Position numbers and translations under genes: made by a program. DNA of 15,157 nucleotides from a virus (lineage: Duplodnaviria > Heunggongvirae > Uroviricota > Caudoviricetes): positions 1 to 15,157 of IMG/VR virus record IMGVR_UViG_2648501466_000031, one strand, 5' to 3'. Under the pieces are notes generated by a model. The model was not told where the DNA came from. It saw only the letters and a program-made list of their open reading frames with translations, and made no database searches. Positions 1 to 15,157 of this stretch are shown one piece after another (positions within the stretch are counted from its first letter, which is position 1; the number at the start of each line of letters is the position of its first letter).

Positions 1-117
1 ACTTTAGAATTTAACGATACTATAATTGAATCTCAGAAAGTCACAGGCAATAAGGCAAAGCATATTCTTGAGGATATAGAAAAATTCTATCGTAACAAAC
101 CCGATACTTATTATTAA
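1..117 (+). CDS. 3' end of an unidentified AT-rich ORF entering from the left edge (ends ...FYRNKPDTYY, stop TAA 115-117)
   Basis: Open frame from position 1 to TAA at 115-117, translated by hand; partial so absent from the ORF track; no recognisable motif. Confidence 0.25.
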   Translation, partial: TLEFNDTIIESQKVTGNKAKHILEDIEKFYRNKPDTYY

Positions 118-305
118 ATTTAATAATAGTTAGATGTGCAGAAATTATTACTCCACCCAAAAAAACAGGATAAGGAATTCCAGATAATTAGGATAAGCTT
201 AACAATAAAAGAACTAATAACGTTTATTATCTCTCACGTAGAACGATGGCATCAAAAAAATCATCTATAAAGAAAGAGTGAAAGCGACGACAGTTTAATT
301 TCACT

Positions 306-329
306 GCAGGCTGGGTAGCTCCAGCCTGC
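306..329. terminator. Perfect 9-bp stem-loop GCAGGCTGG-gtagct-CCAGCCTGC just 3' of tyrB; possible terminator
   Basis: Inverted repeat read directly; sits 10 bp downstream of the tyrB stop (339-341); no strong U-tract on the tyrB strand, hence low confidence. Confidence 0.3.
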
Positions 330-338
330 TTTCCTGCA

Positions 339-1532
339 TTACATCACCGCAGCAAACGCCTTTGCCACACGTTGTACATTTGCCGTATTTAACCCGGCGA
401 CACACATGCGACCGCTGGCGATGAGATAGACACCAAATTCTTCACGTAGTCGGTCAACCTGAGCGGCACTTAAACCGGTATAACTGAACATGCCGCGCTG
501 ATTAAGCAGATAATCGAAATTGCGTTCTGGCATCTCTGTGCTTAATACCTTCACCAGTTCCTGACGCATTGCCAGAATGCGAGTACGCATCTCTTCTACT
601 TCCGCCAGCCAGCTGGCTTTCAATGCCTCGTCATTCAGCACTGCAGCCACCACCTGCGCACCAAAATTCGGCGGGCTGGAGTAGTTGCGGCGAACTGTTG
701 CTTTCAATTGCCCCAGTACGCGGCCAGCGGCTTCGGCATCTTCACACAGAACAGAAAGTCCGCCGACGCGCTCGCCGTAAAGGGAGAAAATTTTCGAGAA
801 CGAATTGCTCACCAGAGCGGGTAATCCAGCGCTGGCAATGGCGCGAATAGCGTAGGCATCCTCTTCCATACCGGCACCAAATCCTTGATAGGCAATATCG
901 AGGAATGGAATAAGCTCGCGGGCTTTGAGAATTTCAATCACCGCATCCCACTGGTCATTAGTGAGATCGGCACCCGTTGGGTTGTGGCAACATGGATGCA
1001 GCAACACAATACTGCGGGCAGGTAATGTTTTCAGCGTCGCCAACAGGTCATTAAAGCGCACGCCGTTAGTCGCTTCGTCATACCAGGGGTAAGTACTCAC
1101 TTCGAATCCAGCCCCGGCGAATATTGCTACGTGGTTTTCCCAGGTAGGATCGCTGACCCAGACGCCTGATTCCGGGAAGTAGCGTTTCAGGAAATCCGCG
1201 CCCACTTTCAATGCCCCTGAGCCGCCAAGGGTTTGAATGGTTGCTACGCGCTGTTGTTGCAGTACTGGATGGTCCGCACCAAACAGCAGCGGCGCAATGG
1301 CATGGCGATAGCTGTTAAGCCCTTCCATCGGTAAATAAAGCGAAGCGCCATGAGGCTGCGCATTCAGGCGCGCTTCCGCCTCCGCCACGGCTTGCAGTTG
1401 TGGAATAATTCCGTCTTCGTTGTAGTACAGACCGATACTTAAATTCACTTTGTCGCTGCGAGGGTCTTCTTTAAAACGCTCCATAAGCGTAAGAATCGGG
1501 TCGCCAGCGTAGGCGTCAACTTTTTGAAACAC
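339..1532 (-). CDS. tyrB: Aromatic-amino-acid (tyrosine) aminotransferase, 397 aa
   Basis: Translation matches class I aminotransferase TyrB over its length ([19 protein letters not shown]-lysine region). The true start is the GTG at 1530-1532 (…[16 protein letters not shown]); the track ORF beginning at 1574 is an upstream in-frame extension. Confidence 0.93.
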
Positions 1533-1728
1533 GCGATGGTTCTCCAGGTTTACGGGCAGGTGGTTAAAACACAATAAACCGGAAGAAGGCGAAGATCGAG
1601 TGGATGTTCAGGAGCGAACGGCAATTAGCAACAGAGTGAGACTCATGACAAACGTACATCCGCCAGAGGCACGACCTTTATAAGAGCATGAAAGAACATC
1701 AACTTATTGAATTTTTAGGATTTTATTG

Positions 1729-1758
1729 GCCGGATAAGGCATTCACGCCGCATCCGGC
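1729..1758. repeat. REP-like palindromic element (GCCGGATaaggcattcacgccgcATCCGGC) in the tyrB-alr intergenic region
   Basis: Imperfect palindrome with GCCGGAT/ATCCGGC arms typical of enterobacterial REP sequences; lies 3' of alr, between convergent-free genes. Confidence 0.55.
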
Positions 1759-1784
1759 ACAGACAATCAAATATTACAGAACGA

Positions 1785-2864
1785 TTAATCCACGTATTTC
1801 ATCGCGACCCTTGAAGTCAGGCGCGTAATAAGTTCGTAAGCGCTTACTTTCGTCATTTCAGCGATACGTTCTACGGGCAAACCTTCGCCCCATAAAATGA
1901 CCGGATCCCCGGCTTTGTCCTGCGCCTGTGGACCTAAGTCTACGCAGATCATATCCATCGCCACGCGCCCGACAATCGGTACTTCGCGACCGTTCACCAG
2001 CACTGGCGTACCGGACGGCGCGGCGCGCGGATAACCATCGCCATAGCCCATCGCGACTACGCCAAGACGGGTATCACGTTCGCTTACCCAGGTTCCACCA
2101 TAACCAACAGGTTCTCCGGCTTTATGCTCACGCACGGCAATCAGGCTGGAGGTTAGTGACATCACTGGCTGACAGCCAAAATCGGCACCGGTGGAGCGAT
2201 CTTCCAGCGGCGAGACGCCATAAAGAATGATGCCCGGGCGCACCCAGTCAAAATGCGACTGTGGCCACAGCAGAATGCCACCCGATGCGGCAATGGAACG
2301 TTGACCAGGTTTGCCTTCGCAAAAGGTATTAAAGATAGCGAGTTGTTTCTCGGTTGCGCCACATTTTGGTTCATCCGCGCGCGCAAAATGGCTGACGATA
2401 TTCACCGGCTGACGAACGTTTTTGCACTGGGTCAGGCGATGATAAAACGCCTCAGCCTGTTCCGGCCTTACGCCCAGACGGTGCATACCGGTATCGAGTT
2501 TCATCCAGACGGTAACCGGCTCGTCCAGGCTAGCCTCTTCCAGCGCAGCCAGCTGTTCTTCGTTATGCACGGCGGTATGAAAATGTTGCGCAGAAATCGT
2601 CGGCAGATCTCTGGCATCAAAAAAGCCTTCGAGTAACAGTACAGGTTTGGTGATTCCCCCCGCACGCAGTCGCAGAGCTTCTTCGAGACGGGCTACGCCA
2701 AAGGCGTCAGCATCGGGGAGCGTTCGCGCGGTCTCAAGAAGACCGTGACCATAAGCGTTCGCTTTCACCACCGCAACCATTTTACTGGCAGGGGCCAGTT
2801 CACGAAGACGTTGCAGGTTGTGTCGCAGAGCGCGGCGGTTAATCACAACAGTTGCCGCTTGCAT
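1785..2864 (-). CDS. alr: Alanine racemase, biosynthetic, 359 aa
   Basis: PLP-binding motif [10 protein letters not shown] near the N-terminus; length and overall sequence typical of Alr; conserved position next to dnaB. Confidence 0.93.
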
Positions 2865-2916
2865 TTGTGTTCCTTGATAAGTGTTTGCTTTAATTACCTA
2901 ATTCATAAAATAATTA

Positions 2917-4332
2917 TTATTCGTCGTCGTACTGCGGCCCCGCATAGTTGTCGAAGCGCGACCATTGACCGTTAAAGGTCAGGCGTACCGTCCCGATTGG
3001 GCCGTTACGTTGTTTACCGATAATAATTTCCGCGATGCCTTTTAAATCACTGTTTTCGTGATACACCTCATCACGATAGATAAACATGATCAAGTCCGCA
3101 TCCTGCTCGATAGAGCCAGATTCACGCAGGTCGGAGTTGACCGGGCGTTTGTCGGCACGTTGTTCCAGAGAACGGTTCAACTGGGACAGCGCCACCACCG
3201 GCACGTTCAGTTCTTTCGCCAGTGCTTTCAGCGAGCGGGAGATTTCTGCAATTTCCAGCGTACGGTTATCGGAAAGCGCCGGTACGCGCATCAGTTGCAG
3301 GTAGTCGATCATGATAAGCCCGATGCCGCCGTGTTCACGGGCAATACGGCGTGCGCGGGAACGCACTTCCGTTGGCGTCAGGCCGGAAGAGTCATCGATA
3401 TAGATATTGCGTTTTTCGAGCAAAATACCCATGGTGCCGGAAATGCGCGCCCAGTCTTCATCATCGAGCTGCCCGGTACGGATTTTAGTCTGGTCAACGC
3501 GCGACAGCGACGCCAGAGAACGCATCATAATCTGTTCTGAAGGCATCTCCAGCGAGAAGATAAGTACCGGTTTATCCTGCAACATCGCCGCGTTTTCGAC
3601 GAGGTTCATCGCAAATGTTGTTTTACCCATCGACGGACGCGCGGCGACGATGATCAAATCCGACGGCTGCAAGCCAGCGGTTTTTTTGTTGAGATCGTCA
3701 TAACCGGTGTTTACTCCGGTAACGCCATCGTGTGGCTGCTGAAACAACTGCTCAATACGCGCCACGGTTGCGTCGAGCACATCGGCGATGTTCTTCGGCC
3801 CTTCGTCTTTGTTTGCACGACTTTCGGCAATTTTAAAGACGCGGGATTCAGCAAGGTCCAGCAGATCTTCGCTGGTACGCCCCTGCGGATCAAAACCGGC
3901 TTCAGCAATCTCATTCGCAACCGAGATCATCTCACGGACAACGGCACGTTCACGCACGATGTCAGCATAAGCACTGATGTTCGCCGCACTTGGCGTATTT
4001 TTTGACAGCTCTGCCAGATAAGCAAAACCACCGACGCTATCGAGTTGCCCCTGGCGTTCCAGCGATTCCGCAAGAGTAATTAGATCGATAGGGCTACCGC
4101 TTTCCTGCAAACGCGCCATTTCAGTAAAGATATGACGGTGTGGGCGGGTGTAAAAATCGTCTGCTACCACACGCTCGGCTACATCATCCCAGCGTTCGTT
4201 ATCTAGCATTAAACCGCCCAACACCGACTGCTCCGCTTCGATCGAGTGCGGAGGCACTTTCAGCCCGGCAACTTGTGGATCGCGTTCGCGGGGTTCAGCC
4301 TGCTGTTTGTTGAAGGGTTTATTTCCTGCCAT
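2917..4332 (-). CDS. dnaB: Replicative DNA helicase DnaB, 471 aa
   Basis: Walker A GARPSMGKT, the DnaB N-terminal domain and a length of 471 aa; classic DnaB. Confidence 0.96.
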   Translation of the reverse strand: MAGNKPFNKQQAEPRERDPQVAGLKVPPHSIEAEQSVLGGLMLDNERWDDVAERVVADDFYTRPHRHIFTEMARLQESGSPIDLITLAESLERQGQLDSVGGFAYLAELSKNTPSAANISAYADIVRERAVVREMISVANEIAEAGFDPQGRTSEDLLDLAESRVFKIAESRANKDEGPKNIADVLDATVARIEQLFQQPHDGVTGVNTGYDDLNKKTAGLQPSDLIIVAARPSMGKTTFAMNLVENAAMLQDKPVLIFSLEMPSEQIMMRSLASLSRVDQTKIRTGQLDDEDWARISGTMGILLEKRNIYIDDSSGLTPTEVRSRARRIAREHGGIGLIMIDYLQLMRVPALSDNRTLEIAEISRSLKALAKELNVPVVALSQLNRSLEQRADKRPVNSDLRESGSIEQDADLIMFIYRDEVYHENSDLKGIAEIIIGKQRNGPIGTVRLTFNGQWSRFDNYAGPQYDDE

Positions 4333-4414
4333 AGTGAATGGAGTTACCGAGATAAAGAATGGGTCGAAACTTTACCATATGAAGCAGACCCTGACGATAC
4401 GTTCTGGAGGACAC

Positions 4415-5398
4415 ATGGCAACACGAATTGAATTTCACAAGCACGGTGGCCCGGAAGTACTTCAAGCCGTAGAGTTCACTCCTGCCGATCCGGCAGAGAA
4501 TGAAATCCAGGTCGAAAATAAAGCCATCGGCATCAATTTTATCGACACATATATCCGCAGCGGCCTTTACCCGCCGCCATCGCTACCCAGCGGATTAGGC
4601 ACCGAAGCAGCAGGCATCGTGAGTAAAGTCGGCAGTGGTGTAAAGCATATTAAGGCAGGCGATCGTGTAGTCTATGCGCAGTCGGCGTTAGGCGCTTACA
4701 GCTCTGTGCATAACATTATTGCGGATAAAGCGGCGATTCTGCCTGCGGCAATTTCTTTTGAGCAAGCTGCGGCATCCTTCCTGAAAGGCTTAACGGTTTA
4801 TTATCTGCTGCGCAAAACCTATGAAATTAAACCCGATGAGCAGTTCCTGTTCCACGCAGCAGCTGGCGGCGTTGGCTTGATTGCCTGCCAGTGGGCAAAA
4901 GCCCTGGGCGCGAAACTTATCGGCACCGTAGGAACCGCGCAAAAAGCGCAGAGCGCGCTAAAAGCGGGCGCGTGGCAGGTTATTAACTATCGTGAAGAGA
5001 ATCTGGTCGAGCGGTTAAAAGAGATCACCGGCGGTAAGAAAGTGCGCGTGGTGTACGATTCCGTGGGCAGAGACACCTGGGAACGGTCGCTGGATTGCCT
5101 GCAACGCCGCGGCTTAATGGTGAGTTTTGGCAACTCATCAGGTGCGGTTACCGGTGTGAACTTAGGCATTCTCAATCAGAAAGGCTCGTTGTATGTGACA
5201 CGCCCTTCCCTGCAAGGCTATATCACCACGCGGGAGGAATTAACCGAGGCCAGTAATGAACTGTTCTCTTTGATTGCCAGCGGTGTGATTAAGGTCGATG
5301 TCGCCGAGCAGCAGAAATATCCGCTGAAGGATGCGCAGCGTGCGCATGAAATTCTGGAAAGCCGGGCAACGCAAGGTTCCAGCCTGCTGATTCCATAA
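4415..5398 (+). CDS. qor: NADPH:quinone oxidoreductase (zeta-crystallin family), 327 aa
   Basis: MATRIEFHKHGGPEVLQ… MDR-family sequence with AAAGGVG NADPH motif; start ATG at 4415 preceded by GGAGGA 5 nt upstream; the track ORF from 4307 is an in-frame upstream extension. Confidence 0.9.
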   Translation: MATRIEFHKHGGPEVLQAVEFTPADPAENEIQVENKAIGINFIDTYIRSGLYPPPSLPSGLGTEAAGIVSKVGSGVKHIKAGDRVVYAQSALGAYSSVHNIIADKAAILPAAISFEQAAASFLKGLTVYYLLRKTYEIKPDEQFLFHAAAGGVGLIACQWAKALGAKLIGTVGTAQKAQSALKAGAWQVINYREENLVERLKEITGGKKVRVVYDSVGRDTWERSLDCLQRRGLMVSFGNSSGAVTGVNLGILNQKGSLYVTRPSLQGYITTREELTEASNELFSLIASGVIKVDVAEQQKYPLKDAQRAHEILESRATQGSSLLIP

Positions 5399-5405
5399 AA
5401 GAAAT

Positions 5406-5436
5406 AGGGCTTCCACCTGGGAAGCCCTTTCTTTTT
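5406..5436. terminator. Bidirectional Rho-independent terminator shared by qor (+) and pspG (-)
   Basis: Stem GGGCTTCC / GGAAGCCC with 5-nt loop, T-tract TTTCTTTTT on the plus side and A-tract (U-tract on minus) on the other. Confidence 0.7.
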
Positions 5437-5563
5437 ATAGTTCGGCTGTATGTAGGGTACAGCACGATGAATCTGTTAGAGGCGCAATAGTGACAGATTT
5501 GATTATCAATTCCTATTTTGTTCTAAGGATAAAACCTTAGGTTGTGATCATCCGCACAATCCC

Positions 5564-5806
5564 TTAGTAACGCCAGCGGTCATAACGCTGATATTTCGGC
5601 ATTTTTGGTGCTTTAATCGCCTTAATAACCCACACCACCGCAATCGCCAGTAGTAACCACGGCAGCAACTTAATCATCAATGCCAGCATACCGCCGAGGA
5701 ACATAATGGCCGTCGCCACAACCAGCGCGGCGATAATGCCCAGCAACGAAACGCCGGTGACCATCAGCATGACAAAAAAGCCAATCACAAAAAGTAGTTC
5801 CAGCAT
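5564..5806 (-). CDS. pspG: Phage shock protein G, 80-aa hydrophobic membrane protein
   Basis: MLELLFVIGFFVMLMVTGVSLLGIIAALVV… …KMPKYQRYDRWRY matches PspG; start ATG at 5804-5806; the track ORF from 6016 is an upstream extension overlapping the dusA 3' end. Confidence 0.85.
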   Translation of the reverse strand: MLELLFVIGFFVMLMVTGVSLLGIIAALVVATAIMFLGGMLALMIKLLPWLLLAIAVVWVIKAIKAPKMPKYQRYDRWRY

Positions 5807-5842
5807 GATGCTCTCCCAAATATGAAATCTCTTGCTGGCATT

Positions 5843-5877
5843 ACAAGAATCATGCCAAAAATAATCTATTGATTTAA
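5843..5877 (-). promoter_or_regulatory. Candidate sigma-54 promoter (-24/-12) plus IHF-like site for pspG
   Basis: Minus-strand reading gives TGGCATGATTCTTGT (close to TGGCAC-N5-TTGC, with GT rather than GC at -12) about 35 nt upstream of the pspG ATG; AATCAATAGATTA (WATCAANNNNTTR) lies immediately upstream. pspG is known to be sigma-54/PspF/IHF dependent. Confidence 0.4.
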
Positions 5878-5939
5878 CAGCAAAACGCCCCGCGACGGTG
5901 CGCAGGGCGTGGTGAATTTGACTACTTTTTGGTGAAAAG

Positions 5940-6977
5940 TTAACGCTTATCCGCCACCAGTTTGAGCGCGTGTTCCAGCACGTTAATGTCAGCACCCGCT
6001 TTATGGGCATTTTCACTTAAATAACGCCGCCACTGCCGCGCGCCAGGAATACCCTGGAACAAACCCAGCATATGCCGGGTAATATGGCCGAGATACGTCC
6101 CCTGGCTGAGTTCACGCTCAATGTACGGATACATGGCGCGCACTACCGCCACCGGATCGGCATCGGTATCCGAGGAACCAAAGATCTCCCGGTCTACCGC
6201 CGCCAGAATACCCGGATTCTGATACGCCTCGCGCCCGACCATCACGCCATCCATATGTTGCAGGTGTGCTTTGGCCTCTTCCAGCGACTTGATACCACCG
6301 TTAATCGACATTGTCAGATGCGGAAAGTCACGCTTCAGTTGATACACACGCGGATAATCGAGCGGCGGGATTTCACGGTTTTCTTTCGGGCTTAACCCCG
6401 AAAGCCAGGCTTTACGTGCGTGGATGATAAACATCTCACACTCGCCTTTGCCGGAAACAGTGTTGATGAAATCGCAGAGAAATTCATAGCTGTCCTGGTC
6501 ATCGATGCCAATACGCGTTTTCACCGTCACTGGAATCGACACCACATCGCGCATCGCTTTCACACAGTCGGCAACCAGCTGCGCATTACCCATCAGACAC
6601 GCACCAAACATGCCGTTCTGCACCCGGTCAGACGGGCAGCCGACATTCAGGTTGATCTCATCATATCCACGCGCTTCTGCCAGCTTCGCACACTGTGCCA
6701 GCGCCGCCGGATCGCTACCGCCGAGTTGCAACGCTACCGGATGTTCTTCTTCACTGTACGCCAGGTAATCACCTTTACCGTGAATAATCGCCCCTGTGGT
6801 CACCATTTCGGTATACAGCAACGTATTGCGGGAAAGCAGACGCAAGAAATAGCGGCAATGTCTGTCCGTCCAGTCGAGCATAGGAGCAATGCTAAACCGA
6901 GAATTCCAGTAAACACCAGTTTTTTCAGGCATCACGCTGGTTTGATTAATTTTTTGTGTTTCATGATTATCGTGCAT
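5940..6977 (-). CDS. dusA: tRNA-dihydrouridine synthase A, 345 aa as drawn; 5' end probably supplied by the adjacent prophage
   Basis: [17 protein letters not shown]… and the Dus catalytic region ([15 protein letters not shown]); the first ~12 codons (6941-6977) are ~24% GC versus ~45-55% for the rest; no Shine-Dalgarno seen at either M1 or M16, so the start is uncertain. Confidence 0.88.
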
Positions 6978-7010
6978 TTTTGAACATTTCAGGCTATTTT
7001 TCTCGCGTTA

Positions 7011-7046
7011 GGTTCCCGCACAGGTTCCCACGTTTTATGGGAACCC
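7011..7046. promoter_or_regulatory. GGTTCCC repeat cluster in the int 5' region: direct copy 7011-7017 plus inverted repeat GGTTCCCA-N7-TGGGAACC (7024-7046)
   Basis: Read directly; sits 20-55 nt upstream of the int ATG (7066) in the dusA-int divergent region; candidate operator or recombinase/RDF binding sites. Confidence 0.35.
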
Positions 7047-7065
7047 GAAATAACGAGGTCGTGTA

Positions 7066-8163
7066 ATGGCATACTATAACATAGAGAAACGACTAAAATC
7101 CGATGGCACACCACGCTATCGCTGTAATGTGATTATCAAAGAAAAAGGTGTTATCACTTACAGGGAAAGTAAAACATTCCCTAAACATGCTCATGCCAAA
7201 ACATGGGGCACACAGAAAGTGATGGAATTAGATCTATATGGCATTCCATCATCAAATGCAGTTGACGGACTTACAGTCCGTGACTTACTACACAAATATT
7301 TAAATGACCCAAATGCCGGAGGTAAAGCAGGCCGTACTAAAAGATATGTGCTGGAACTGCTTATGGATAGTGACGTCTCCGCGCTCAAACTATCTGAACT
7401 GACAGAAAATGACGTAATTGAACATTGCAGGCTAAGAAACAACGCTGGTGCAGGTCCAGCTACAGTTAGCCACGATGTTAGTTATCTTGGCAGTGTTCTG
7501 GATGCTGCCAAACCTGTATATGGAATTAATTACACATCAAACCCAGCAAAAGCCGCTCGTCCATATCTACTTAAACTTGGTTTAATTGGTAAATCAAATC
7601 GTCGTAATCGTAGACCGGCATCTGATGAACTGGACATGCTCATTGAAGGTCTTCAACAACGATCTACACATAAATGCTCAAAAATTCCGTTCGTTGATAT
7701 CCTCAAATTTTCTGTGTGGTCATGTATGCGAATCGGTGAAGTATGCCGATTACGATGGGAGGATCTCGATCAGGAACAAAAATCCATACTCGTAAGAGAC
7801 AGGAAAGATCCACGTAAAAAGGAAGGCAACCATATGAAAGTAGCCTTGCTTGGGGAAGCCTGGGATATCGTCCAACGACAACCCAAAAAATCAGAATTCA
7901 TTTTTCCATATAACAGCACTTCTGTTACTGCGGGATTCCAGAGGGTAAGAAGCAAATTAGGTATTAAAGATCTGCGATACCATGATTTGCGTAGAGAAGG
8001 GGCAAGTCGCTTATTTGAGGCTGGTTTTAGTATTGAGGAAGTCGCCCAGGTTACAGGGCATCGTTCATTAAACGTGCTATGGCAGGTATATACCGAACTG
8101 TATCCGAAATCTTTACATAATCGTTTTGAAGAGCTCCAAAGGAGCAGAAATAAGGCCTCTTGA
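7066..8163 (+). CDS. int: Phage tyrosine integrase (site-specific recombinase), likely dusA-associated integrase type, 365 aa
   Basis: Catalytic signature: box I R (CMRIGEVCRLRWEDL), HDLRR (H-x-x-R), GHRS, and tyrosine in WQVYTEL; position directly abutting and divergent from the dusA 5' end. Confidence 0.88.
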   Translation: MAYYNIEKRLKSDGTPRYRCNVIIKEKGVITYRESKTFPKHAHAKTWGTQKVMELDLYGIPSSNAVDGLTVRDLLHKYLNDPNAGGKAGRTKRYVLELLMDSDVSALKLSELTENDVIEHCRLRNNAGAGPATVSHDVSYLGSVLDAAKPVYGINYTSNPAKAARPYLLKLGLIGKSNRRNRRPASDELDMLIEGLQQRSTHKCSKIPFVDILKFSVWSCMRIGEVCRLRWEDLDQEQKSILVRDRKDPRKKEGNHMKVALLGEAWDIVQRQPKKSEFIFPYNSTSVTAGFQRVRSKLGIKDLRYHDLRREGASRLFEAGFSIEEVAQVTGHRSLNVLWQVYTELYPKSLHNRFEELQRSRNKAS

Positions 8164-8211
8164 CACTGTTTATCTATACAGTTAAAAATAATACTGTATA
8201 CAAACACAGTA
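8164..8211 (+). promoter_or_regulatory. Two tandem LexA (SOS) boxes upstream of the dinI-like gene
   Basis: Box 1 at 8164-8183 CACTGTttatctatACAGTT; box 2 at 8192-8211 TACTGTatacaaacACAGTA (perfect CTGT-N8-ACAG with TA flanks); RBS AGAGGGA and ATG at 8225 follow. Confidence 0.75.
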
Positions 8212-8224
8212 TAGAGGGACTTTT

Positions 8225-8473
8225 ATGCGTATTGAAATCTGCATAGCCAAAGAAAAAATGACTAAAATGCCAACCGGTGCTGTGGATGCGTTAAAGGAAG
8301 AATTAACCCGACGCATCAGTAAACGTTATGACGATGTAGAGGTGATCGTAAAAGCCACCAGCAACGATGGCCTTTCTGTTACACGCACCGCAGATAAGGA
8401 TTCTGCAAAAACTTTTGTTCAGGAGACTCTGAAAGATACCTGGGAATCTGCTGACGAGTGGTTTGTTCACTAA
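8225..8473 (+). CDS. dinI: DinI-family DNA-damage-inducible protein (RecA modulator), 82 aa
   Basis: [11 protein letters not shown]…[16 protein letters not shown]…LSV…[17 protein letters not shown] aligns along its length with E. coli DinI (MRIEVTIAK…GAIDAL…LQETWESADDWFV). Confidence 0.88.
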
Positions 8474-8652
8474 TTAACACGTAAAATCGGTAACGGCTGG
8501 AAATCATTCAATACTCGCACTATCGAAAGTTCGCCAGCCAGCCGTGGCACGTTCTTGCATACGACGTGCTACGGTTTCATTTATCTCCCGAAACTCCATT
8601 TGGATTTATCCGGTGCGCCGTAAAACCCCGTCCTTCAGGGCGTGGAGGATGT

Positions 8653-8736
8653 CAACTGGACGCACTGGAGCTGGTCGATACTTCCGGTGCGCCAGATATT
8701 GAATGGCCTACGCCTCCGGCAGTTCAGGCCAGATGA
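8653..8736 (+). pseudogene. Relic 3' end of a second, convergent tail-fibre-assembly gene (tfa-prime); only the C-terminal ~25 codons are recognisable
   Basis: Plus-strand frame at 8653-8733 reads QLDALELVDTSGAPDIEWPTPPAVQAR then TGA (8734-8736), matching the conserved Tfa C-terminal motif (VDTSTAPDIEWP); the upstream frame degenerates, with a stop at 8491; overlaps the minus-strand tfa 3' end by 29 bp. Confidence 0.45.
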
Positions 8737-9298
8737 CATCCGGCGCGGTGCTGGTATCTGTTGCCTGCACCGCCTTAATGTAGCCAATCCAGGCAATCAG
8801 GCTGGCTTTGTCATCGCCACTGATAATGCCTAACTGCAGTTCCGTTTGCCACAGGCTGATTTTTGAATTTGCGGCGTTCAGAAGATTTGTTTTCTGTTGC
8901 TCGGCTTCGGCCACGTTCGCCGAGTGCTGTTTATCGCTATCTGTAGCCCATTTGTCATATGGCGTAGATGGTGCTGTGGTGGTGGTGCCTTCCGGGTATT
9001 CTCCCAACCGTGAAACTGTCACATGCTTTCCAGTTTCCGTGCTGTAAACGGTTTCGCCGCGATGGTCTGCAACGTATTCCCAACCGGTCAAATCAGCCGT
9101 CCGGCAAACAGCAAAGCCGTCCTTTTTGCTGATTGGCGCATCCACGCACGAATTGCCTGGAACACCAACGCCAACGGGAAGATATTCAACAGCTAAACCG
9201 ATATATTCACGCGTCACGCCATCATAATTATAAACGGTGATATATCCGTCTTCCGTGGCGAAACCGTTTTCATCTAATGAAATTTCTTTTGCGGTCAT
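8708..9298 (-). CDS. tfa: Tail fibre assembly protein (Tfa / Mu U-like chaperone), 196 aa
   Basis: C-terminus …IAWIGYIKAVQATDTSTAPDVIWPELPEA is typical of the lambda Tfa / Mu U family; start overlaps the stop of the upstream fibre gene (TAATG). Confidence 0.85.
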   Translation of the reverse strand: MTAKEISLDENGFATEDGYITVYNYDGVTREYIGLAVEYLPVGVGVPGNSCVDAPISKKDGFAVCRTADLTGWEYVADHRGETVYSTETGKHVTVSRLGEYPEGTTTTAPSTPYDKWATDSDKQHSANVAEAEQQKTNLLNAANSKISLWQTELQLGIISGDDKASLIAWIGYIKAVQATDTSTAPDVIWPELPEA

Positions 9299-10053
9299 TA
9301 TACTGCCCTTACAATGTAGTTGAATGCGAGGTTGCGCGGGCGAGTTTCAGCACCTGTTGAACCATTCGCCTTTAAGTAAACCCAACCAGAGCCATTAAAA
9401 GTGGTTGCATTAATCATATATTTAATCGGAATCATGTCAGAGTCAGGGGTATCGCCCAGCCTGTCCCTGTAAGCGGTATCTGAACTGTATGCCATCGCTA
9501 GATCATGAGTATGCTGCTGTACTGATTGGCTCTGACCAGTTAAAACAACGCGCCCACTATCAACCCCGCGCCCATCATCCCAGCCACGGATAAATTCACC
9601 GCGCAAATCAGGCAATTTTAACGCTGGATAAACTTTTGCCAGCTCCGGGTATTCTTCAGCAGAAAAAGGCGCACCGTTGCATTTAATCCAGCCTGTTGGC
9701 GGTGTGGCTGAAGGCCACGGAACAGGTACACCAACGGGTAACGCTGAGCCTTCTCCCAAACCAAGGTTTTCGAGAGCCGTTTGCACAGTGCCATCCGATT
9801 TGATATCGCCAAACGGATTCTTGCGGCTTAACAGCAGCGCACGAAGTGCGGTAAGCAGCTGGTCATGCCGCCCTTTCTCCAGGCTGGCACCGGAGGCCTC
9901 CACCACGCTACAAAGTTCTTCCTGCAACATGTCAAAGTAGTCATCATCCAGATCGGTGGCAGGTGTGCCGGTCTGGGGGTTACCACGGGTAAAACCGTTC
10001 TTACCCGCGCCGAACTTATCCTTCTGCGCGGTTTTCGTGTCTATACGATGCAT
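9298..10053 (-). CDS. Short tail fibre protein with phage tail-collar domain (Mu S-like), 251 aa
   Basis: N-terminal fibre-anchor region followed by a collar-type motif ([22 protein letters not shown]…[17 protein letters not shown]); positioned between the gp48-like gene and tfa. Confidence 0.78.
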
Positions 10054-10056
10054 GGA

Positions 10057-10641
10057 TTACTCCGGATATTTAAAAATTACGTAGGTATGCGAAGGGCAGA
10101 GTTTGTTAAGCACGCACTCGACAACGGTGTCGCCCCAGATACGCAGTGCGGAATCACAGGGATCGCCACATGTCATCCAGGTGGTGTTGGTGGCGGCTGG
10201 CATGTTGACCTGCCAGTAATACCGCCATTCCGGCGCATTCACAGCGTCAGTACAGGCCGATGAGCAGGTGAACGTGCTTTTGTCGTATCGCGTGATGGCG
10301 GCATCTGGTCTGCCCAGGGCAGCAAGCTGTGCAAGGTAAAAATCCTCATTGATGCCGCCCGCCAGATTAACCTTCGCATCCAGCCGTTGCTGACGCTGGC
10401 GAAGGGTCTGTGTCCCTGCGGGAATACATTCATCCGGCAGACCGCACAGACGCTCCCAGCGGTTTATCAGTTCAGTGGTGGTGCGCGGATCCAGCTCCCG
10501 CATCAGGGCATCCGCACGCTGATGAACACGGGTTAATGACGGTGCCGCACCTGCAATCGCCGGATCGCTGGCTGACCACGCCGGACCGGGCGGCAGCAGT
10601 GCCGACAACAGACGGATGTAATCATCGTTTGTCACGTCCAT
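10057..10641 (-). CDS. Mu gp48 / YmfQ-like baseplate-wedge tail protein (DUF2313 family), 194 aa
   Basis: N-terminus [22 protein letters not shown] resembles YmfQ/gp48-family proteins; position between baseplate J and the fibre gene. Confidence 0.75.
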
Positions 10642-11690
10642 GAAATCGTCCCCAGAACCGCCAGTTCATTTTTTGCAATGGAGATATTGTCCGCCGGTGC
10701 AAGCAACTGATGGCTGTATTCCCCGTTCGCACCGGAAATCGCTTCACTGATACGTGACACCTTCAGTTCTCCCTGCGGATAACCATCACGCAGCAGGAAC
10801 GAACGCAACTCCGCGGTGATGGCAGCCCGTATTTCCGGTGTGTCCGGCGTCACACGGATATGAAAATCCACCGTATGTGCCACCGGCCTGAACACATACA
10901 AATCAGAGCCTGCCACCGGGGCCAGTGGCTCGATATGTTGTCTTGCCGCCGTTTCCGTTGATTCTTCCGGAATGGGATTAATCAGGTCACTGCTGGCAAT
11001 CATCACACCGACAGTCCCCGTTCCCATCCAGTGTCGGTATGTCCATGCGCGGGTAATGCCGGGCACTTCTTTAGCCCAGACGACATAGTCCCCGTCAGCC
11101 CCGCCCTGAGGCGTCCAGTAATACCGCTCAATGACGCGGGCGCGCCACGTTTCCAGCTCTTCAGTATCAAATCCGCCTGTAAGGGTGTCAGCCACACCGG
11201 AAGACGGCAGACCATTCACCGGCGTGACCAGGATTAATGCCGTACCGTCGTCAGCGTTACCGACCGCGCCTGTAGTTGAGCAAGTGATCGGCACACGCAG
11301 GACACCACCGGAGCTGGTTGCATCGGCAGTTGCCGTGTACTGAACCAGGTCATCGCGCTGAATCACGCTCCCGGCAGTCACCTTCAGGCCATCGCTGACA
11401 CCTTCCCAGCGCATATACCCGCTGGCAGCCGTGGCCCCCTTGCGCGGACATCGTTTCATCGCAGCATGTCGCGCCAGCCAGGACTCATCGCACAAGTCAG
11501 GCAGCATGTTCATTGCCAGATAATCGATGTACCCGTAAACCGTATGCAGCGCCGCCGCATACACCTTTGCCCGCACGTCTTCATCCATGCGCCGGAGCGT
11601 GTCGCTGACGTCCAGCCAGGCGAATAAATCGTTACGGAGCATACTGATATTTTCTGCCAGCGTCGGGCGCTGAAATTCACTGTCCGCCAT
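10632..11690 (-). CDS. Baseplate J-like protein (Mu gp47 / P2 gpJ family), 352 aa
   Basis: Size, position and sequence character of Baseplate_J family proteins; overlaps neighbours by 10 and 14 nt (translational coupling). Confidence 0.8.
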
Positions 11691-12105
11691 GCGTTATCGC
11701 ACTCCACAGATCATCAAAAGAAATCATTACCGGTCCGTCACGACGCCAGAGAGTGATACTGTTACCCAGTTCATTAATCCCGGTGCGGCGGATATCCAGA
11801 TCAATACGGGACACCACGCCATCATCAATCATCCATTGCAGGCATTCGCGGATATACCCCCTTACCGTCTGCACCAGCTGATTGGTCAGTTTGCTGCGCT
11901 GAAGCAGCCACAGTCGGGAGCCGTAACGGTCATTCTGTACCGCAGGCCAGGTATCCCCCCACCATCCCATCGGGACGCCGGCGTTGTCATCAGGCTCCGC
12001 CCGCCGCCAGGTAAACAGGGAAATCACCACGGCGCGGGTCAGCGGATCCAGCGGTGCGCTGGCGCAGGTGCGTTTACCGTTCACCGTCAGCCACAGTTCC
12101 ATCAT
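11677..12105 (-). CDS. Mu gp46-like baseplate protein (phage GP46 family), 142 aa
   Basis: Small protein between baseplate V and baseplate J, as in Mu-type tail modules; ATGA overlap with the upstream gene. Confidence 0.75.
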   Translation of the reverse strand: MMELWLTVNGKRTCASAPLDPLTRAVVISLFTWRRAEPDDNAGVPMGWWGDTWPAVQNDRYGSRLWLLQRSKLTNQLVQTVRGYIRECLQWMIDDGVVSRIDLDIRRTGINELGNSITLWRRDGPVMISFDDLWSAITHGGQ

Positions 12106-12650
12106 GCCTCCATCGCTTTATCAGGTTTGTCGGTGTTACTGCCCTGACCGTTCTCTATGTGACGATGCCCGTTATAGGCAAGCCGCATCGCTGACATGGT
12201 GGTGCCGCTGGAGTCGCACAGGTCTTTCACCTGTCCTGTCACTTCCAGGTCCATTTCAAAACGTGCCTTAGGCGCATTGCGAAACGTGATCGTTTTACCT
12301 GCACCGTCCACCACGATCCCCTCCCGGGTCAGCGTCACGGACTGCCCCTGATCGTCATAGACAGCCACCTCCCCAGTCTGCAGCCCTTTCAGGCGGTAGC
12401 GACGGTCCGACACCGTAACAACCACCGCATGAGAACGGTCTCCATCCGGAAACAACACCACCGCTTCCGCACCGCTGTTTGCCCTTGCGGTAAAACCGTA
12501 GGGTTCAAGATGTTCAACCCCGGCTTTGGGTTCACCGGCAATCAGGGACACATCCACGGTCTGACATTTCGTGGCGGCACTGATGCTTTTCACCACGGCC
12601 CGCCCAATCAGGCCGAGGAGTTGTCGCTGCATGGCTTCAATCGTCCTCAT
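12102..12650 (-). CDS. Baseplate assembly protein V / spike (Mu gp45, P2 gpV family), 182 aa
   Basis: Size and order match the baseplate spike of Mu-type modules; beta-rich central region typical of gpV OB-fold proteins. Confidence 0.78.
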   Translation of the reverse strand: MRTIEAMQRQLLGLIGRAVVKSISAATKCQTVDVSLIAGEPKAGVEHLEPYGFTARANSGAEAVVLFPDGDRSHAVVVTVSDRRYRLKGLQTGEVAVYDDQGQSVTLTREGIVVDGAGKTITFRNAPKARFEMDLEVTGQVKDLCDSSGTTMSAMRLAYNGHRHIENGQGSNTDKPDKAMEA

Positions 12651-13729
12651 CAGAACGGGTCCTCCTGTACTCTGGCTTTTTTCTTTTTCCGCGCGCCGGG
12701 GGCTTCGGGTTCAGGCAGATAAGCATCAGGCGGGCCGACACGGATTTCCGTCAGGGTGCCGTTCTGGTCCTGAGTAAACGTGACTTCCGAAACAAGCAGT
12801 TCGGTATTGTCGAAACCACAGACCGGATCAAAGACAATCACCCGCTGGTTGGGCTGCCACAGCGTACCGTTACCCTGTCGCCAGCCCTGCACCACATAGG
12901 TGGTTTCATCCGTCCGCGCCGCCCGTTGTCGGGCTTCAAAGTCCGCACGGGCAATACAGCCTGCCCCCGTAGCCTGCCCTGTCTGCCTGATATACATCGG
13001 ACGGTAACGGGCAATAAATGCGTCCTCTGTGCGGGCCCGCAGCGCGGTGGTGGTGGCCTCACCGAAATCATCGTCGTTTCCGGCACGCTGCCCCGCCACC
13101 TGGTAAACTGAAAACCGCTCCCGGATACTCTTCTCCGTATCACAGGAAAGGATGTTTTCCCCAAGTACCAGCGCGGTATGTGCCCGCGTTGAGCCAATAC
13201 CGCCAATCACCAGCCTGCCGTGCGGGTCGTCGTAAGCCAGTGCCTGCTGCTGACCGAGTATTTTGTTGATTACCTCAATCACCGTTTCACCGTGATCAGG
13301 CTGGACGTCAGGAATAACACCCGACGGCGCACCGTTGTTCACCACCTCAATGCCGAAGGGCGCAGCAAGCGCCTGCGCAATCTGTACCAGCGATCGTCCG
13401 TTAAACTGTGTCGGTTCGGCTGCACAGTCAATCAGATCAGCGGTTAGACTGCGTCCGGCAATACCAGTGCTGACCGAACGGGCATCGTAACGAACGGGCG
13501 TCGCCTCCACCCAGCCGGTGATCACCAGCTCATCACCAATCAGCACTTCCACTTTTGAACCGTTTTTAATGCGCGGCTGAAGCGTGGTGATACCCTCATC
13601 TCCCGGCCACTGGCGGGTGATCTCCACACTGAAATCCCGCGCCAGTCGTTCAACACCGGCACCGATGCGCACCGATGTCCAGCCATTCCACTCCCGGCCA
13701 TTTACCCGTAGCGTGACGTTATCGTTCAT
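12650..13729 (-). CDS. Mu P-like baseplate hub protein (gp44 / P2 gpD-like), 359 aa
   Basis: Size and position immediately downstream of the N-like gene; Lys-rich C-terminal tail (ARKKKKARVQEDPF). Confidence 0.75.
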   Translation of the reverse strand: MNDNVTLRVNGREWNGWTSVRIGAGVERLARDFSVEITRQWPGDEGITTLQPRIKNGSKVEVLIGDELVITGWVEATPVRYDARSVSTGIAGRSLTADLIDCAAEPTQFNGRSLVQIAQALAAPFGIEVVNNGAPSGVIPDVQPDHGETVIEVINKILGQQQALAYDDPHGRLVIGGIGSTRAHTALVLGENILSCDTEKSIRERFSVYQVAGQRAGNDDDFGEATTTALRARTEDAFIARYRPMYIRQTGQATGAGCIARADFEARQRAARTDETTYVVQGWRQGNGTLWQPNQRVIVFDPVCGFDNTELLVSEVTFTQDQNGTLTEIRVGPPDAYLPEPEAPGARKKKKARVQEDPF

Positions 13730-15054
13730 TGCACTGGCACCTTCAGAGGGATCACCGGCACAAAGCCGGGATGCGTAATGGCATTACGCCGGATAATGTC
13801 CGCGTCACGCGCCGCGTTATCAAACCAGGTCGCCGCCAGCACCAGCGCGGGTAAAACCTCATCCGGTGTGCGCTGAATGATCCGTGCAGACTGTTCAAGG
13901 CGCGTGTTGATATCCGCATTCAGATCTGCTTTCACCCGGCGCAGCGCCAGAAACAGCGCATCACTGGTTGTACGGGACAACTCCTTATCAATTGCCGTAT
14001 TCAGTGTGTCGCGAATGTCAGTCAGTTCTTCCCACGTCGGCAGGTCAACTGTGTTTTTCACCGCCGGTGCATTGTTCAGTGCCGGATGCGTGACGGAAGG
14101 CCAGCCAGTGCTCTGCGCAGGTGTTGTTGCCTGCCCCACTGCGGAATTCTGCATCACCGCGGAAGTTGTTGGCGCAGGCAATCGGGTGACGGCATACGCC
14201 GCTTCGCTGATTGCGGTCGTACGAAGGGTGCTGGCAACCACGTTACGCTGCTGCGTCGCCGTGGCGGTGGTTTTACTGTCCGTTTTCCAGACGCCGCGCG
14301 GTTGCAGATCGCTGCCGAGGCTGACACCGGAAAGCGTTTTGATCATGGTGACCAGGTCGCTGGCGTTACCATAAAGGCGTTTCCCGGTACGCCACATTTT
14401 CTGCACCTGCTCAACGAAATTTTTGCCTGACGATGGCGGCGGCAGAAGTACCGAGATATCCCCCTGCAACAGCCTGGCGGCATCCGATACGGCAGAATCC
14501 ACCACTTTCATCGCATCAGAAACATACCCCAGCATTATGCTGGCATTACCGATAACGTCGTTCTGCACAAAATCCGCCACACCATCGATACTGAAACCGC
14601 TGAAGCTGTCACTGATGCAGTCATCCAGTGCAGAACAGGATGACATCAGCGTCTGCGCCGTCGCCGCACCTGATGTGGGGTAAGAGAGTTCTCCTGCTTC
14701 GACAAACTTCAGGTCAAAGCGGACAATACGCCCTTCACTTTTCGATGTGCTGACCCGAACTTCCCCGTCAACACAGACTTTCAGCTCACCATATGTCGGG
14801 TGGACAAGCGTGCCGGGACCGGGTTTATTCAGCGCTTCAATCAGGCGATCGCGCTGGTCAAAGCAGTCATCTCCCACCACATAAGCTGTGATGGACGGGC
14901 GGAAAGTGACTTTTCCCAGATCTTCGGTATAGGGCTTGTCGCGGTTCGGATATTCGTGTGTTTCCACACGGCGACCGGTTCCCGCACTTTCTTCTTCAAC
15001 CTTAAACGGTACGCCGCGAAATGACGCATCCTGAAGCCTGTCTTTCCACGTCAT
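13726..15054 (-). CDS. Mu N-like DNA circulation protein (tail hub / tape-measure-associated), 442 aa
   Basis: N-terminus MTWKDRLQDASFRGVPFKVEEES… is characteristic of the Mu N (DNA_circ_N) family; RBS GGAG 7 nt upstream of the ATG at 15054. Confidence 0.82.
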   Translation of the reverse strand: MTWKDRLQDASFRGVPFKVEEESAGTGRRVETHEYPNRDKPYTEDLGKVTFRPSITAYVVGDDCFDQRDRLIEALNKPGPGTLVHPTYGELKVCVDGEVRVSTSKSEGRIVRFDLKFVEAGELSYPTSGAATAQTLMSSCSALDDCISDSFSGFSIDGVADFVQNDVIGNASIMLGYVSDAMKVVDSAVSDAARLLQGDISVLLPPPSSGKNFVEQVQKMWRTGKRLYGNASDLVTMIKTLSGVSLGSDLQPRGVWKTDSKTTATATQQRNVVASTLRTTAISEAAYAVTRLPAPTTSAVMQNSAVGQATTPAQSTGWPSVTHPALNNAPAVKNTVDLPTWEELTDIRDTLNTAIDKELSRTTSDALFLALRRVKADLNADINTRLEQSARIIQRTPDEVLPALVLAATWFDNAARDADIIRRNAITHPGFVPVIPLKVPVQ

Positions 15055-15070
15055 ATAAACTCCGGATACA

Positions 15071-15125
15071 AAAAACCCGCCAAATCTGCTTTGTCAGTTA
15101 TTTACATCGCAGAAGATGTGGCGGG
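15071..15125 (-). terminator. Intrinsic terminator on the minus strand immediately upstream of the N-like gene
   Basis: Minus-strand reading: GC-rich stem CCCGCCA…TGGCGGG (plus inner pairing CTGC/GCAG) followed by TTTTTTG, ending 16 nt before the N gene ATG. Confidence 0.5.
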
Positions 15126-15157
15126 AACCTAATATTTTTAATTACTATCTGAGTTGA

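Follow-up and report, generated by a model that had tools for sequence, protein, structure and literature searches.

The tyrosine integrase gene described here lies directly beside the distal end of a Mu-type tail module, and this raises the question of what kind of element the two belong to and how they came to be neighbours. The window, by which we mean the whole 15157 bp stretch analysed, is an entire contig of a draft assembly. Its host genes run in the order tyrB-alr-dnaB-qorA-pspG-dusA, which identifies it as an E. coli contig; a prophage has integrated within the 5' end of its dusA gene, and the contig ends just past the gene for the tail protein N with the head and lysis genes beyond view. 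We consider it very likely that an SfV-like temperate phage has integrated site-specifically into the 5' end of E. coli dusA and that the region 7066-15054 is its integrase-proximal end. Such phages combine a lambdoid genome layout and an HK97-type head with a Mu-type contractile tail, and the arrangement is real but ordinary, representing a very common and already described E. coli prophage type. The open reading frames of this region were present at the coordinates in Table 1, and each scored above its Pfam gathering threshold; PHROG assignments were used beside those of Pfam.

Table 1 Features of the dusA junction and the integrase-proximal prophage end
Feature	Coordinates	Strand	Basis
dusA (tRNA-dihydrouridine synthase A), hybrid gene	5940..6977	-	PF01207 Dus; alignment to MG1655 and SKA5
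Integration crossover core TCGAGCAT (prophage/host junction)	6874..6881		Common to attB (MG1655) and attP (SKA5)
GGTTCCC x3 (two direct, one inverted) in dusA-int spacer	7011..7045		Candidate arm-type Int or excisionase sites
Tyrosine integrase, dusA-associated type, 365 aa	7066..8163	+	PF00589, E=1.1e-20
Predicted dinI promoter (TTGACA, 18 nt, AAAAAT) and two overlapping LexA-box-like sites	8160..8209	+	Pattern scan
DinI-like gene, 82 aa, sole intact cargo gene in slot	8225..8473	+	PF06183, E=1.1e-19; phrog_189
Tfa 3' remnant, 26 codons + stop (...LDALELVDTSGAPDIEWPTPPAVQAR*), from a second Tfa gene that converges on the active one	8656..8736	+	Translation
Tail fibre assembly protein (Tfa), 196 aa	8708..9298	-	PF02413 (Caudo_TAP), E=1.4e-29
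Chimeric tail fibre, 251 aa	9298..10053	-	Collar domain PF07484
Orphan Pin/Gin-type crossover site CTTCTCCCAAACCAAGGTTT at fibre constant/variable junction	9750..9769		Identity to SKA5 repeat
Baseplate wedge protein, Mu gp48 / e14 YmfQ homologue	10057..10641	-	PF10076 (Phage_Mu_Gp48)
Baseplate J-like protein, Mu gp47 homologue	10632..11690	-	PF04865 (Baseplate_J), E=4.8e-54
Mu gp46 homologue, called gene 141 aa	11677..12102	-	PF07409 (GP46)
Baseplate spike/assembly protein, Mu gp45 homologue	12102..12650	-	PF06890 (Phage_Mu_Gp45)
Baseplate hub protein, Mu P (gp44) homologue	12650..13729	-	PF21683, PF22255, PF21929 (GpP/Gp44 domains)
DNA-circularisation / baseplate hub protein, Mu N (gp43) homologue	13726..15054	-	PF07157 (DNA_circ_N), E=3.7e-34

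Integration into dusA

Alignment places the prophage/host boundary within dusA itself. To the left of 6874 the window is identical to MG1655 and from 6874 rightwards it is identical to Escherichia phage SKA5 (OR670062), with the first mismatches to SKA5 at 6872-6873 and the first to MG1655 at 6882. The gene is therefore host sequence over 5940-6873, and the phage provides a replacement 5' end (approximately 6882-6977), behaving like the dusA-specific elements that exchange this end of the gene for their own sequence (PMC4482086). The attR site is outside the window; in the E. coli genome D53-1 the stub of the original dusA 5' end has been displaced to the far end of the prophage and is 83% identical over 107 bp.

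The integrase belongs to the dusA-associated tyrosine recombinases. Its R, H-x-x-R, H and Y motifs can be aligned to those of XerA (5hxy) and it is 98.6% identical to the SKA5 integrase by BLASTP, in contrast with only 21.5% identity, limited to the catalytic domain, to the integrase of SfV, a phage that does not use dusA. As in the dusA-associated integrases of Farrugia et al. 2015 (PMC4482086), int adjoins the dusA 5' end, the two genes diverging across 88 bp. About half of the elements in that family are prophages and Escherichia is well represented; a PrtN-family gene, a trait of the dusA-specific elements, is present in relatives of the window, whose membership we judged from context and att behaviour only. 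Three of the five GGTTCCC matches in the window fall within 35 bp of the dusA-int spacer and the triplet is conserved in SKA5, D53-1 and phage mEp460, with one further copy on the other att arm, making these repeats candidate arm-type integrase or excisionase binding sites. A simple scan of the spacer found no sigma-70-like promoter for int. In the prophage, int presumably has to be expressed independently, without co-transcription with the excisionase.

The layout of SKA5, mEp460 and D53-1 explains how the integrase came to face the tail. In the circular phage genome int is found where lambdoid phages usually have it, with the early-left operon on one side and the late operon, fibre end first, on the other; it points toward the tail genes, and attP is upstream of it on the early-gene side. 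It is because of this position of attP that the integrase abuts the tail fibres, integration joining int and dinI to the fibres at one prophage end and sending the candidate PrtN-type excisionase gene to the other. SfV differs in that its int is directed away from the tail genes and gtrA/B/V occupy the slot between Tfa and int. By analogy with lambda, its attP would lie between gtr and int and, if so, int and the fibres would be found at opposite ends of an SfV prophage.

A Mu-type baseplate in a lambdoid phage

The tail genes follow the Mu order gp43-gp48, fibre and Tfa, with stop/start overlaps of 1 to 14 nt at every junction but that of gp48 and fibre (a 3-nt gap); the longest ORF for gp46 begins one codon before the called gene, at 12105. 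Comparison with the Mu annotation, Pfam and BLASTP thus bears out the gene order and overlapping codons reported in the preliminary description, as it does the presence of a tyrosine integrase rather than a Mu transposase, none being present in the window. On sequence grounds the element is, as had been proposed, a mosaic that sets this integrase beside a Mu-type baseplate and tail-fibre module.

Close counterparts of the baseplate proteins are those of the Shigella flexneri serotype-converting phage SfV, to which N through gp48 are 98-99.5% identical: N 99.1% (orf15), P 99.4% (orf16), gp45 98.4% (orf17), gp46 99.3% (orf18), gp47 98% (orf19) and gp48 99.5% (orf20). The corresponding values against Mu are 42% for the N-terminal domain of N, 35% for P (gp44), 28% for gp45, 40% for gp46 and 30% for each of gp47 and gp48. 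In DNA the tail block is 97.4% identical to SfV, and SfV, SfI, SfII and SfIV together are 97.4-97.6% identical to the window over 9750-15081; this group of lambdoid myoviruses shares the tail gene order, the fibre N-terminus, a tyrosine integrase and the lambdoid layout with the window type. Indeed the SfV record itself annotates orf15-20 as homologues of Mu N, P and gp45-48 alongside int/xis and cI/cro. A contractile tail has been seen by electron microscopy in SfIV (PMC3851460).

A Mu-family transposable phage in which the transposase had been swapped for an integrase would account for the collinearity of N, P, gp45-48, fibre and Tfa with Mu and for the shared Pfam families that bear Mu names. 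We regard this as extremely improbable however, given that the Mu proteins are just 28-41% identical by BLASTP while DNA identity to the SfV-type phages is about 97%, that the fibre does not match Mu S, and that the SfIV paper reports this phage group to share no DNA similarity with Mu (PMC3851460). The full genomes of close relatives are lambdoid, carrying cI/cro, an O-like replication gene, Q, an HK97-type head, a P27-type small terminase and no transposase. The element differs from Mu in its site-specific integration and, judging from these relatives, in lambdoid regulation and head type; its relatives do carry a Gin/Pin-type invertible fibre segment resembling the G segment of Mu.

The slot between the integrase and the fibre

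Between the stop codons of int (8163) and Tfa (8708) lie 544 bp holding one intact gene, which agrees with the earlier estimate of about 550 bp and a single small gene, except that a Tfa remnant (8656-8736) is also present. The intact gene encodes a protein 100% identical to the DinI-like protein of SKA5 and its upstream region contains the only two CTGT-N8-ACAG matches in the window (8166-8181 and 8194-8209; 0.16 expected), at a place where the mEp460 record also annotates a promoter. In line with the SOS control proposed earlier, these LexA-box-like sites predict a LexA-repressed moron that would be expressed on DNA damage.

The accessory slot, described previously as almost empty, is indeed short in comparison with relatives, because this copy is without the Pin-type invertase cassette found in most of them. 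SKA5 and most dusA-prophage genomes carry, in the interval between dinI and Tfa, a Pin-type invertase together with an alternative fibre-tip/Tfa pair (about 1.3-1.7 kb); the window, D53-1 and a second complete chromosome, OZ038585.1 (L018), are without it. The Tfa remnant is left from such an invertible or duplicated fibre cassette. It is 93% identical to the convergent Tfa ends in SKA5, and in D53-1 the same piece carries the PGAP label 'tail fiber assembly protein, incomplete'. The crossover site at 9750-9769 has the same sequence as one arm of the inverted repeat (20 nt) flanking the invertible segment of SKA5, and is the exact point at which SKA5 and SfV homology blocks switch. It is the sole AAACCNNGGTTT match in the window, in which we found neither a partner site nor an invertase. 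The window copy may have lost the cassette or never fully had it; as only the orphan site and the Tfa stub are kept, the fibre would be fixed in one form.

The fibre was previously called S-like. It does occupy the Mu position but it has no BLASTP match to Mu S (E<=1e-3) and is half as long (Mu S, 504 aa). SfV orf21 shares 92% identity with residues 1-108, and HK97 Stf shares 55% with residues 93-251. On these similarities the protein is a chimera: its N-terminal part, for attachment to the baseplate, is of SfV type, and its C-terminal tip is of the lambdoid Stf type. The adjacent Tfa is 59% identical to HK97 Tfa, its last 65 aa being 45% identical to Mu U', and the fibre tip and Tfa together form a lambdoid (HK97-like) side-fibre cassette. 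This cassette differs from that of SfV and is only 46-59% identical to that of SKA5. The segment 8000-10100 was found in one piece in none of the complete E. coli genomes (the best single place covers 61%), and the exact fibre-tip/Tfa combination is therefore rare among finished genomes.

That rarity, in a short draft contig, could indicate that the junction of integrase and tail is a chimeric assembly artefact. We attach next to no credence to this explanation, since an independent assembly (L011) contains the same dusA-int-dinI-Tfa-fibre junction with an identical fibre protein, the chromosomes of D53-1 and OZ038585.1 share the invertase-less order, and homology to D53-1 is unbroken across 5745-8782 at 97.9%.

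Complete relatives and deletion derivatives

The combination of integrase and tail module had been thought unusual, a view contradicted by SfV, SfI, SfII and SfIV, by the dusA-associated integrase family (PMC4482086) and by SKA5, which is 98% identical over 86% of 7000-15157; prophages with this exact organisation form a described, standard family. SKA5 and the dusA prophages share with the window the order dusA stub/attP, int, dinI, fibre module and baseplate. At least 80% of the whole window, dusA junction included, is present in 126 complete E. coli genomes with such dusA prophages, examples being RSHH22, D53-1 and ETEC H10407.

A degraded prophage remnant or domesticated tailocin-like cluster keeping only the integrase, dinI and tail genes is in our view unlikely, although the contig end just past N and the missing invertase cassette with its leftover Tfa stub would fit it, and deletion derivatives of the SfV-like type do exist. 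The cryptic prophage e14 of E. coli K-12 retains only the gp47-gp48-fibre-Tfa-Pin end of the tail module, and in contig L010, which encodes an identical 251-aa fibre protein, early genes are fused directly to gp47. Against this, all ten genes from int to N are intact, full length and 98-100% identical to those of SKA5 except for the fibre tip and Tfa. D53-1, with the same invertase-less int-dinI-Tfa layout, carries a full 38-kb prophage with terminase, lysis genes, Q, repressor and attR, the PrtN-family gene lying at its far end with the dusA stub. A public collection lists the exact N protein in 5707 blocks, and upstream of it all eight long contigs listed carry the genes for tape measure, tube, sheath, neck and head. 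At the other end, five of these eight have int next to dusA, a sixth (L015) has dinI directly followed by dusA in its gene list, and two end in other genes. Contig breaks inside prophages are moreover common because such modules recur several times per genome, with the window matching 4 places in the median E. coli genome. Under the preferred reading of an SfV-like prophage in dusA, the remaining genes probably lie elsewhere in the draft assembly, on further contigs.

The jayE (gp47), ymfQ (gp48) and stfP N-terminal sequences of e14 are 96.5% identical to 9749-11419, and e14 likewise combines a tyrosine integrase with a baseplate end of Mu type and a fibre segment that Pin can invert. Unlike the window it is a remnant left by deletion, 15 kb long and inserted in icd; its integrase is a different one, at the other end, and pinE is retained.

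The int-dinI module also occurs with a different tail type. In the lambdoid siphovirus mEp460 this module is 97% identical over 6874-8577, a stretch that takes in the attP arm of dusA type and the GGTTCCC repeats, and likewise 97% over 7000-8577, and it holds the same position, between an early-left operon with a PrtN-type xis and the distal tail-fibre gene, but the tail is of the lambda-type non-contractile kind (J, lom, stf) with no Mu-type baseplate. Phage cdtI and related Stx phages group with mEp460 as carriers of a similar module. In cdtI the match is split into two parts, extends over 3.6 kb and covers the cdtABC toxin genes.

The tail module and its relatives

An integrase, a DinI-like gene and a tail block in Mu order with overlapping stop and start codons had been described between positions 7066 and 15054 of the window, and this gene list is borne out by the open reading frames, by Pfam assignments that all lie above the gathering score, by PHROGs assignments concordant with them and by the annotation of Mu, whose order gp43-gp48, S, U is the same as that of the tail block. 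All genes of the window are intact and neighbouring genes of the tail block overlap by 1-14 nt, except that gp48 and the fibre gene are 3 nt apart. The integrase is of the tyrosine type, as claimed, with a PF00589 domain and the motifs RIGE, HDLR, GH and VYT (R, H-x-x-R, H, Y) aligning with those of XerA (5hxy), and there is no transposase in the window. As to the likening of the last two tail genes to S and U of Mu, the C-terminus of Tfa is 45% identical to Mu U', and BLASTP gave no match of the fibre to Mu S, so that the S-like label was dropped.

Coordinates of the host genes, phage genes and sites discussed
Feature	Position	Strand	Basis or remark
E. coli chromosome (tyrB, alr, dnaB, qorA, pspG, dusA)	1-6977		ORF list, E. 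coli genome search, annotated relatives
tyrB	339-1574	-	
dusA	5940-6977	-	
Crossover core	6874-6881		TCGAGCAT, common to MG1655 and SKA5
GGTTCCC, three copies	7011-7045		Two direct, one inverted
int	7066-8163	+	Phage_integrase (PF00589), Pfam E=1.1e-20
Promoter-like site	8160-8189		TTGACA-18-AAAAAT
LexA-box-like sites	8166-8181, 8194-8209		CTGT-N8-ACAG
DinI-like gene	8225-8473	+	DinI (PF06183), Pfam
10-bp direct repeat	8610-8619, 8684-8693		CCGGTGCGCC
3' stub of a second, convergent Tfa gene	8656-8736	+	SKA5 comparison; 26 codons, overlaps active Tfa stop by 29 nt
Tfa	8708-9298	-	Caudo_TAP, Pfam
Fibre	9298-10053	-	Tail Collar domain, Pfam
Orphan Pin/Gin-type recombination site	9750-9769		CTTCTCCCAAACCAAGGTTT, inside fibre gene; identical to one arm of the SKA5 invertible-segment inverted repeat
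Four genes after the fibre, in this order			Phage_Mu_Gp48, Baseplate_J, GP46, Phage_Mu_Gp45, Pfam
P	12650-13729	-	GpP/Gp44 domains, Pfam
N	13726-15054	-	DNA_circ_N, Pfam

Comparison with phage records by megablast places the tail block with the Shigella serotype-converting phages SfV, SfI, SfII and SfIV, which are 97.4-97.6% identical in DNA to 9750-15081. The proteins N through gp48 are collinear with SfV orf15-20 at 98-99.5% identity, whereas they share only 28-41% with Mu gp43-48. The remainder matches other lambdoid phages, with int, dinI and the adjoining att arm (6874-8577) 97% identical to phage mEp460, while the fibre tip, Tfa and downstream stub (8480-9333) match HK97 at its stf-tfa end with 85% identity; within the fibre protein, residues 1-108 share 92% identity with SfV orf21 and residues 93-251 share 55% with HK97 Stf. 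In the Escherichia phage SKA5 (OR670062) the int-dinI module and the SfV-type module are arranged as in the window, and the identity is 98% over 86% of 7000-15157.

The preliminary description had regarded the joining of a Mu-type tail to an integrase as an unusual mosaic, and this is not supported, as a standard, already described family with the same organisation was found (SfV-like phages, SKA5 and 126 complete E. coli genomes). The SfV record, in which int, xis, cI, cro and Q also stand, already names Mu N, P and gp45-48 as the homologues of orf15-20; SfIV has a contractile tail by electron microscopy, with an appearance likened to SfV, SfII and SfI, and is reported to lack DNA similarity to Mu (PMC3851460); and a truncated relative is found in e14, the cryptic prophage of K-12, whose jayE-ymfQ-stfP is 96.5% identical to 9749-11419. 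The SfV annotation, the SfIV paper and e14 thus show that a phage type which joins a Mu-type tail to a tyrosine integrase was described long ago and is very common; it has been recognised since SfV and is widespread in E. coli. An SfV-like prophage in E. coli dusA is therefore already known, and the significance of the present case is slight beyond annotation, in that the contig is now placed as E. coli chromosome at dusA with an SfV-like prophage.

Other identities were considered. A Mu-type transposable phage was rejected since DDE transposase A, B protein and Mu ends are absent both from the window and from its close relatives, read over their full genomes, and there is a site-specific dusA junction instead. 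An R-type tailocin would be a tail and lysis gene cluster without head, terminase, integrase or att sites, whereas the window holds an intact integrase and an att junction and its relatives have heads. Integrase and att junction are the lambdoid traits seen in the window itself; cI, cro and Q are seen in relatives only. An assembly chimera was also rejected.

The Tfa-dinI slot and the fixed fibre

The integrase had been placed about 550 bp from the end of the fibre genes with a single small gene between. The distance from the int stop to the Tfa stop is 544 bp and does contain one intact gene, but the spacer also holds the 3' stub of a second Tfa gene. PGAP annotates the counterpart of this stub in D53-1, a complete E. 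coli genome with a dusA prophage. The 85% match to HK97 covers the stretch of that phage downstream of tfa, so that lambdoid stf-tfa cassettes may have had such a stub for a long time. Just downstream of dinI, PGAP calls the D53-1 counterpart of 8470-8558 (- strand) a frameshifted, incomplete 'capsid protein' pseudogene.

The one intact gene is the DinI-like gene, for which SOS control had been supposed. The two LexA-box-like sites are the only ones of their kind in the window, against 0.16 expected, and they overlap the promoter-like site just upstream of the gene, at the counterpart of which a promoter is annotated in mEp460. From these motifs we infer, on sound grounds, that the gene would be under SOS control.

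That the accessory slot is almost empty proved correct, with only dinI remaining where relatives carry an invertase cassette or other cargo. In SKA5, the complete E. coli genome RSHH22 and most relatives, the interval from dinI to the active Tfa houses a Pin-type invertase together with an alternative fibre tip and Tfa. Homology of the window to SKA5 ends at 8578, 38 bp before the SKA5 invertase stop codon; from 8656, where the convergent Tfa ends lie, it is found again with its orientation inverted. Neither an invertase nor a partner for the orphan recombination site is present in the window, and the fibre is therefore held in a single configuration. This layout without an invertase recurs in D53-1, in OZ038585.1 (a complete chromosome with an identical N protein) and in a draft contig with an identical fibre protein. 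Among complete E. coli genomes none covers 8000-10100 in a single piece, 61% being the best coverage, so that the pairing of this fibre tip with this Tfa is uncommon in finished genomes; three draft assemblies do have it. The 10-bp direct repeat brackets part of the 77 bp without a match (8579-8655); a deletion or recombination event by which the invertase cassette was lost could have left it behind, or it could be due to chance.

The slot is a recognised variable cargo site, a point for curation. It is filled by gtrABV in SfV, and the cdtABC toxin genes of phage cdtI interrupt the match of that phage to the int-dinI module. Contigs with an identical N protein carry further genes after the invertase, namely a DUF4145 gene in the slot or its neighbourhood (two contigs, L015 and L016, 17478-18525), a GIY-YIG (LEM-3-like) gene (L020, 17907-18680) and a DUF3037 and HipA-like pair beside dinI and umuDC-like genes (L021, 17986-19541), all of them possible defence or toxin-antitoxin morons. 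L020 ends in other genes rather than int-dusA, and the end of L021 is likewise without int-dusA.

The dusA junction and the position of the integrase

The window matches in part all 5426 complete E. coli genomes searched, and at least 80% of it, host flank included, is found in the 126 already mentioned. We aligned the window with MG1655, which has the empty K-12 site, and with SKA5. The window equals the MG1655 site up to 6873 and SKA5 from 6874 onward, and the first 96-104 nt of dusA are thus phage DNA, which should be noted in curation. The resulting hybrid dusA is an intact ORF of 345 codons. It diverges from int, which directly adjoins its 5' end (starts at 6977 and 7066). No tRNA or tmRNA was found in the window, which excludes a tRNA integration site; the target is dusA. 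A dusA-associated integrase gene adjoins the 5' end of dusA, which the element exchanges for its own sequence; prophages account for about half of these elements, many have a PrtN homologue, and Escherichia is among the well-represented genera (PMC4482086, Farrugia et al. 2015). The integrase and junction of the window, judged by context and att behaviour, match this description, and the integrase shares only 21.5% identity with SfV Int. Of the semi-conserved direct repeats (attL/attR) expected to flank such an element, the window holds one junction only; D53-1 has the displaced original dusA 5' stub (83% identity over 107 bp) and a PrtN-family gene at the far end of a 38-kb prophage, and in the phage records of SKA5 and mEp460 attP is circularly joined, in keeping with excision as a circle, by which wild-type dusA would be restored.

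The closeness of int to the fibre genes, odd at first sight, is explained by the position of attP. SKA5 and mEp460 share the order early-left operon, PrtN-type excisionase candidate, two or three small reverse genes, dusA-like attP, int (directed towards the tail), dinI and fibre genes. On these maps int has its normal lambdoid place, with the early-left genes on one side of it and the fibre end of the late operon on the other. What sets the layout apart from lambda and HK97 is where attP lies. The att core of HK97 is found between tfa and int, whereas in SKA5 and mEp460 attP is on the other side of int; as attP is on the early-gene side, int and dinI stay joined to the fibres at one prophage end. 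The closeness is a direct consequence of the map and not a special juxtaposition. In an SfV prophage int and fibres would lie at opposite ends, going by the lambda-like gene order of the SfV record.

In the integrated state the early-left promoter would no longer serve int and the excisionase together, and int would need control of its own. The 88-bp spacer between dusA and int, which must also promote the hybrid dusA, contains the GGTTCCC triplet. SKA5, mEp460 and D53-1 conserve the triplet and have one more copy on the other att arm, which makes the repeats plausible, candidate arm-type binding sites. A simple promoter scan of 6978-7065 found no sigma-70-like promoter for int. A joint reading, which we hold to be rather improbable, is that integration parts int from the PrtN-type excisionase and the early-left promoter, that excision would depend on separate control of int from the spacer, possibly through the GGTTCCC repeats and the PrtN-family protein and unlike pL/pI/sib of lambda, that the spacer would be a phage-supplied dusA promoter, and that the invertase-less, HK97-tipped fibre would mark a host-range-locked sublineage.

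Completeness of the prophage and the contig ends

JHSE01000105.1, a contig of draft assembly GCA_001265835.1, is identical to the window from end to end, so that readable sequence stops at 15157, and a P27-type terminase, HK97-type head, sheath, tube and tape measure are seen in the relatives named below. Both a complete phage and a remnant had been entertained for the source strain. We consider a full-length prophage probable. SKA5 is a deposited phage genome, and the prophages of RSHH22 and D53-1 are full ones that include tape measure, tube, sheath, neck, HK97-type head, terminase, lysis, Q, replication, repressor and early-left genes; a tail and head gene set also lies upstream of N in each of the eight long contigs listed with an identical N protein. 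Deletion derivatives of the SfV-like type do occur, as in e14 and the contig L010, which has an identical fibre protein, yet these full-length relatives and the intact state of every gene in the window make a degraded remnant quite improbable. In L010 (CAJRCL010000074.1, 7276-9810) SfV-type int, early genes and cI/cro run straight into gp47-gp48-fibre, with head genes and most tail genes missing, and this contig is either an e14-like deletion derivative or a misassembly.

The contig end (15055-15157) falls about 100 bp upstream of N. Relatives have a variable small gene between N and the tape measure, encoding 164-170 aa of unknown function or, in L020, a 125-aa bPH-domain protein, whereas SfV has no gene there; the break near 15157 may reflect repeated or variable sequence. 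Rfam gave no match in the window at the gathering threshold. At the left contig end, past tyrB, positions 1-500 are low in GC (0.39 vs about 0.52) and correspond to the yjbS or small hypothetical gene region in the tyrB-aphA interval of relatives.
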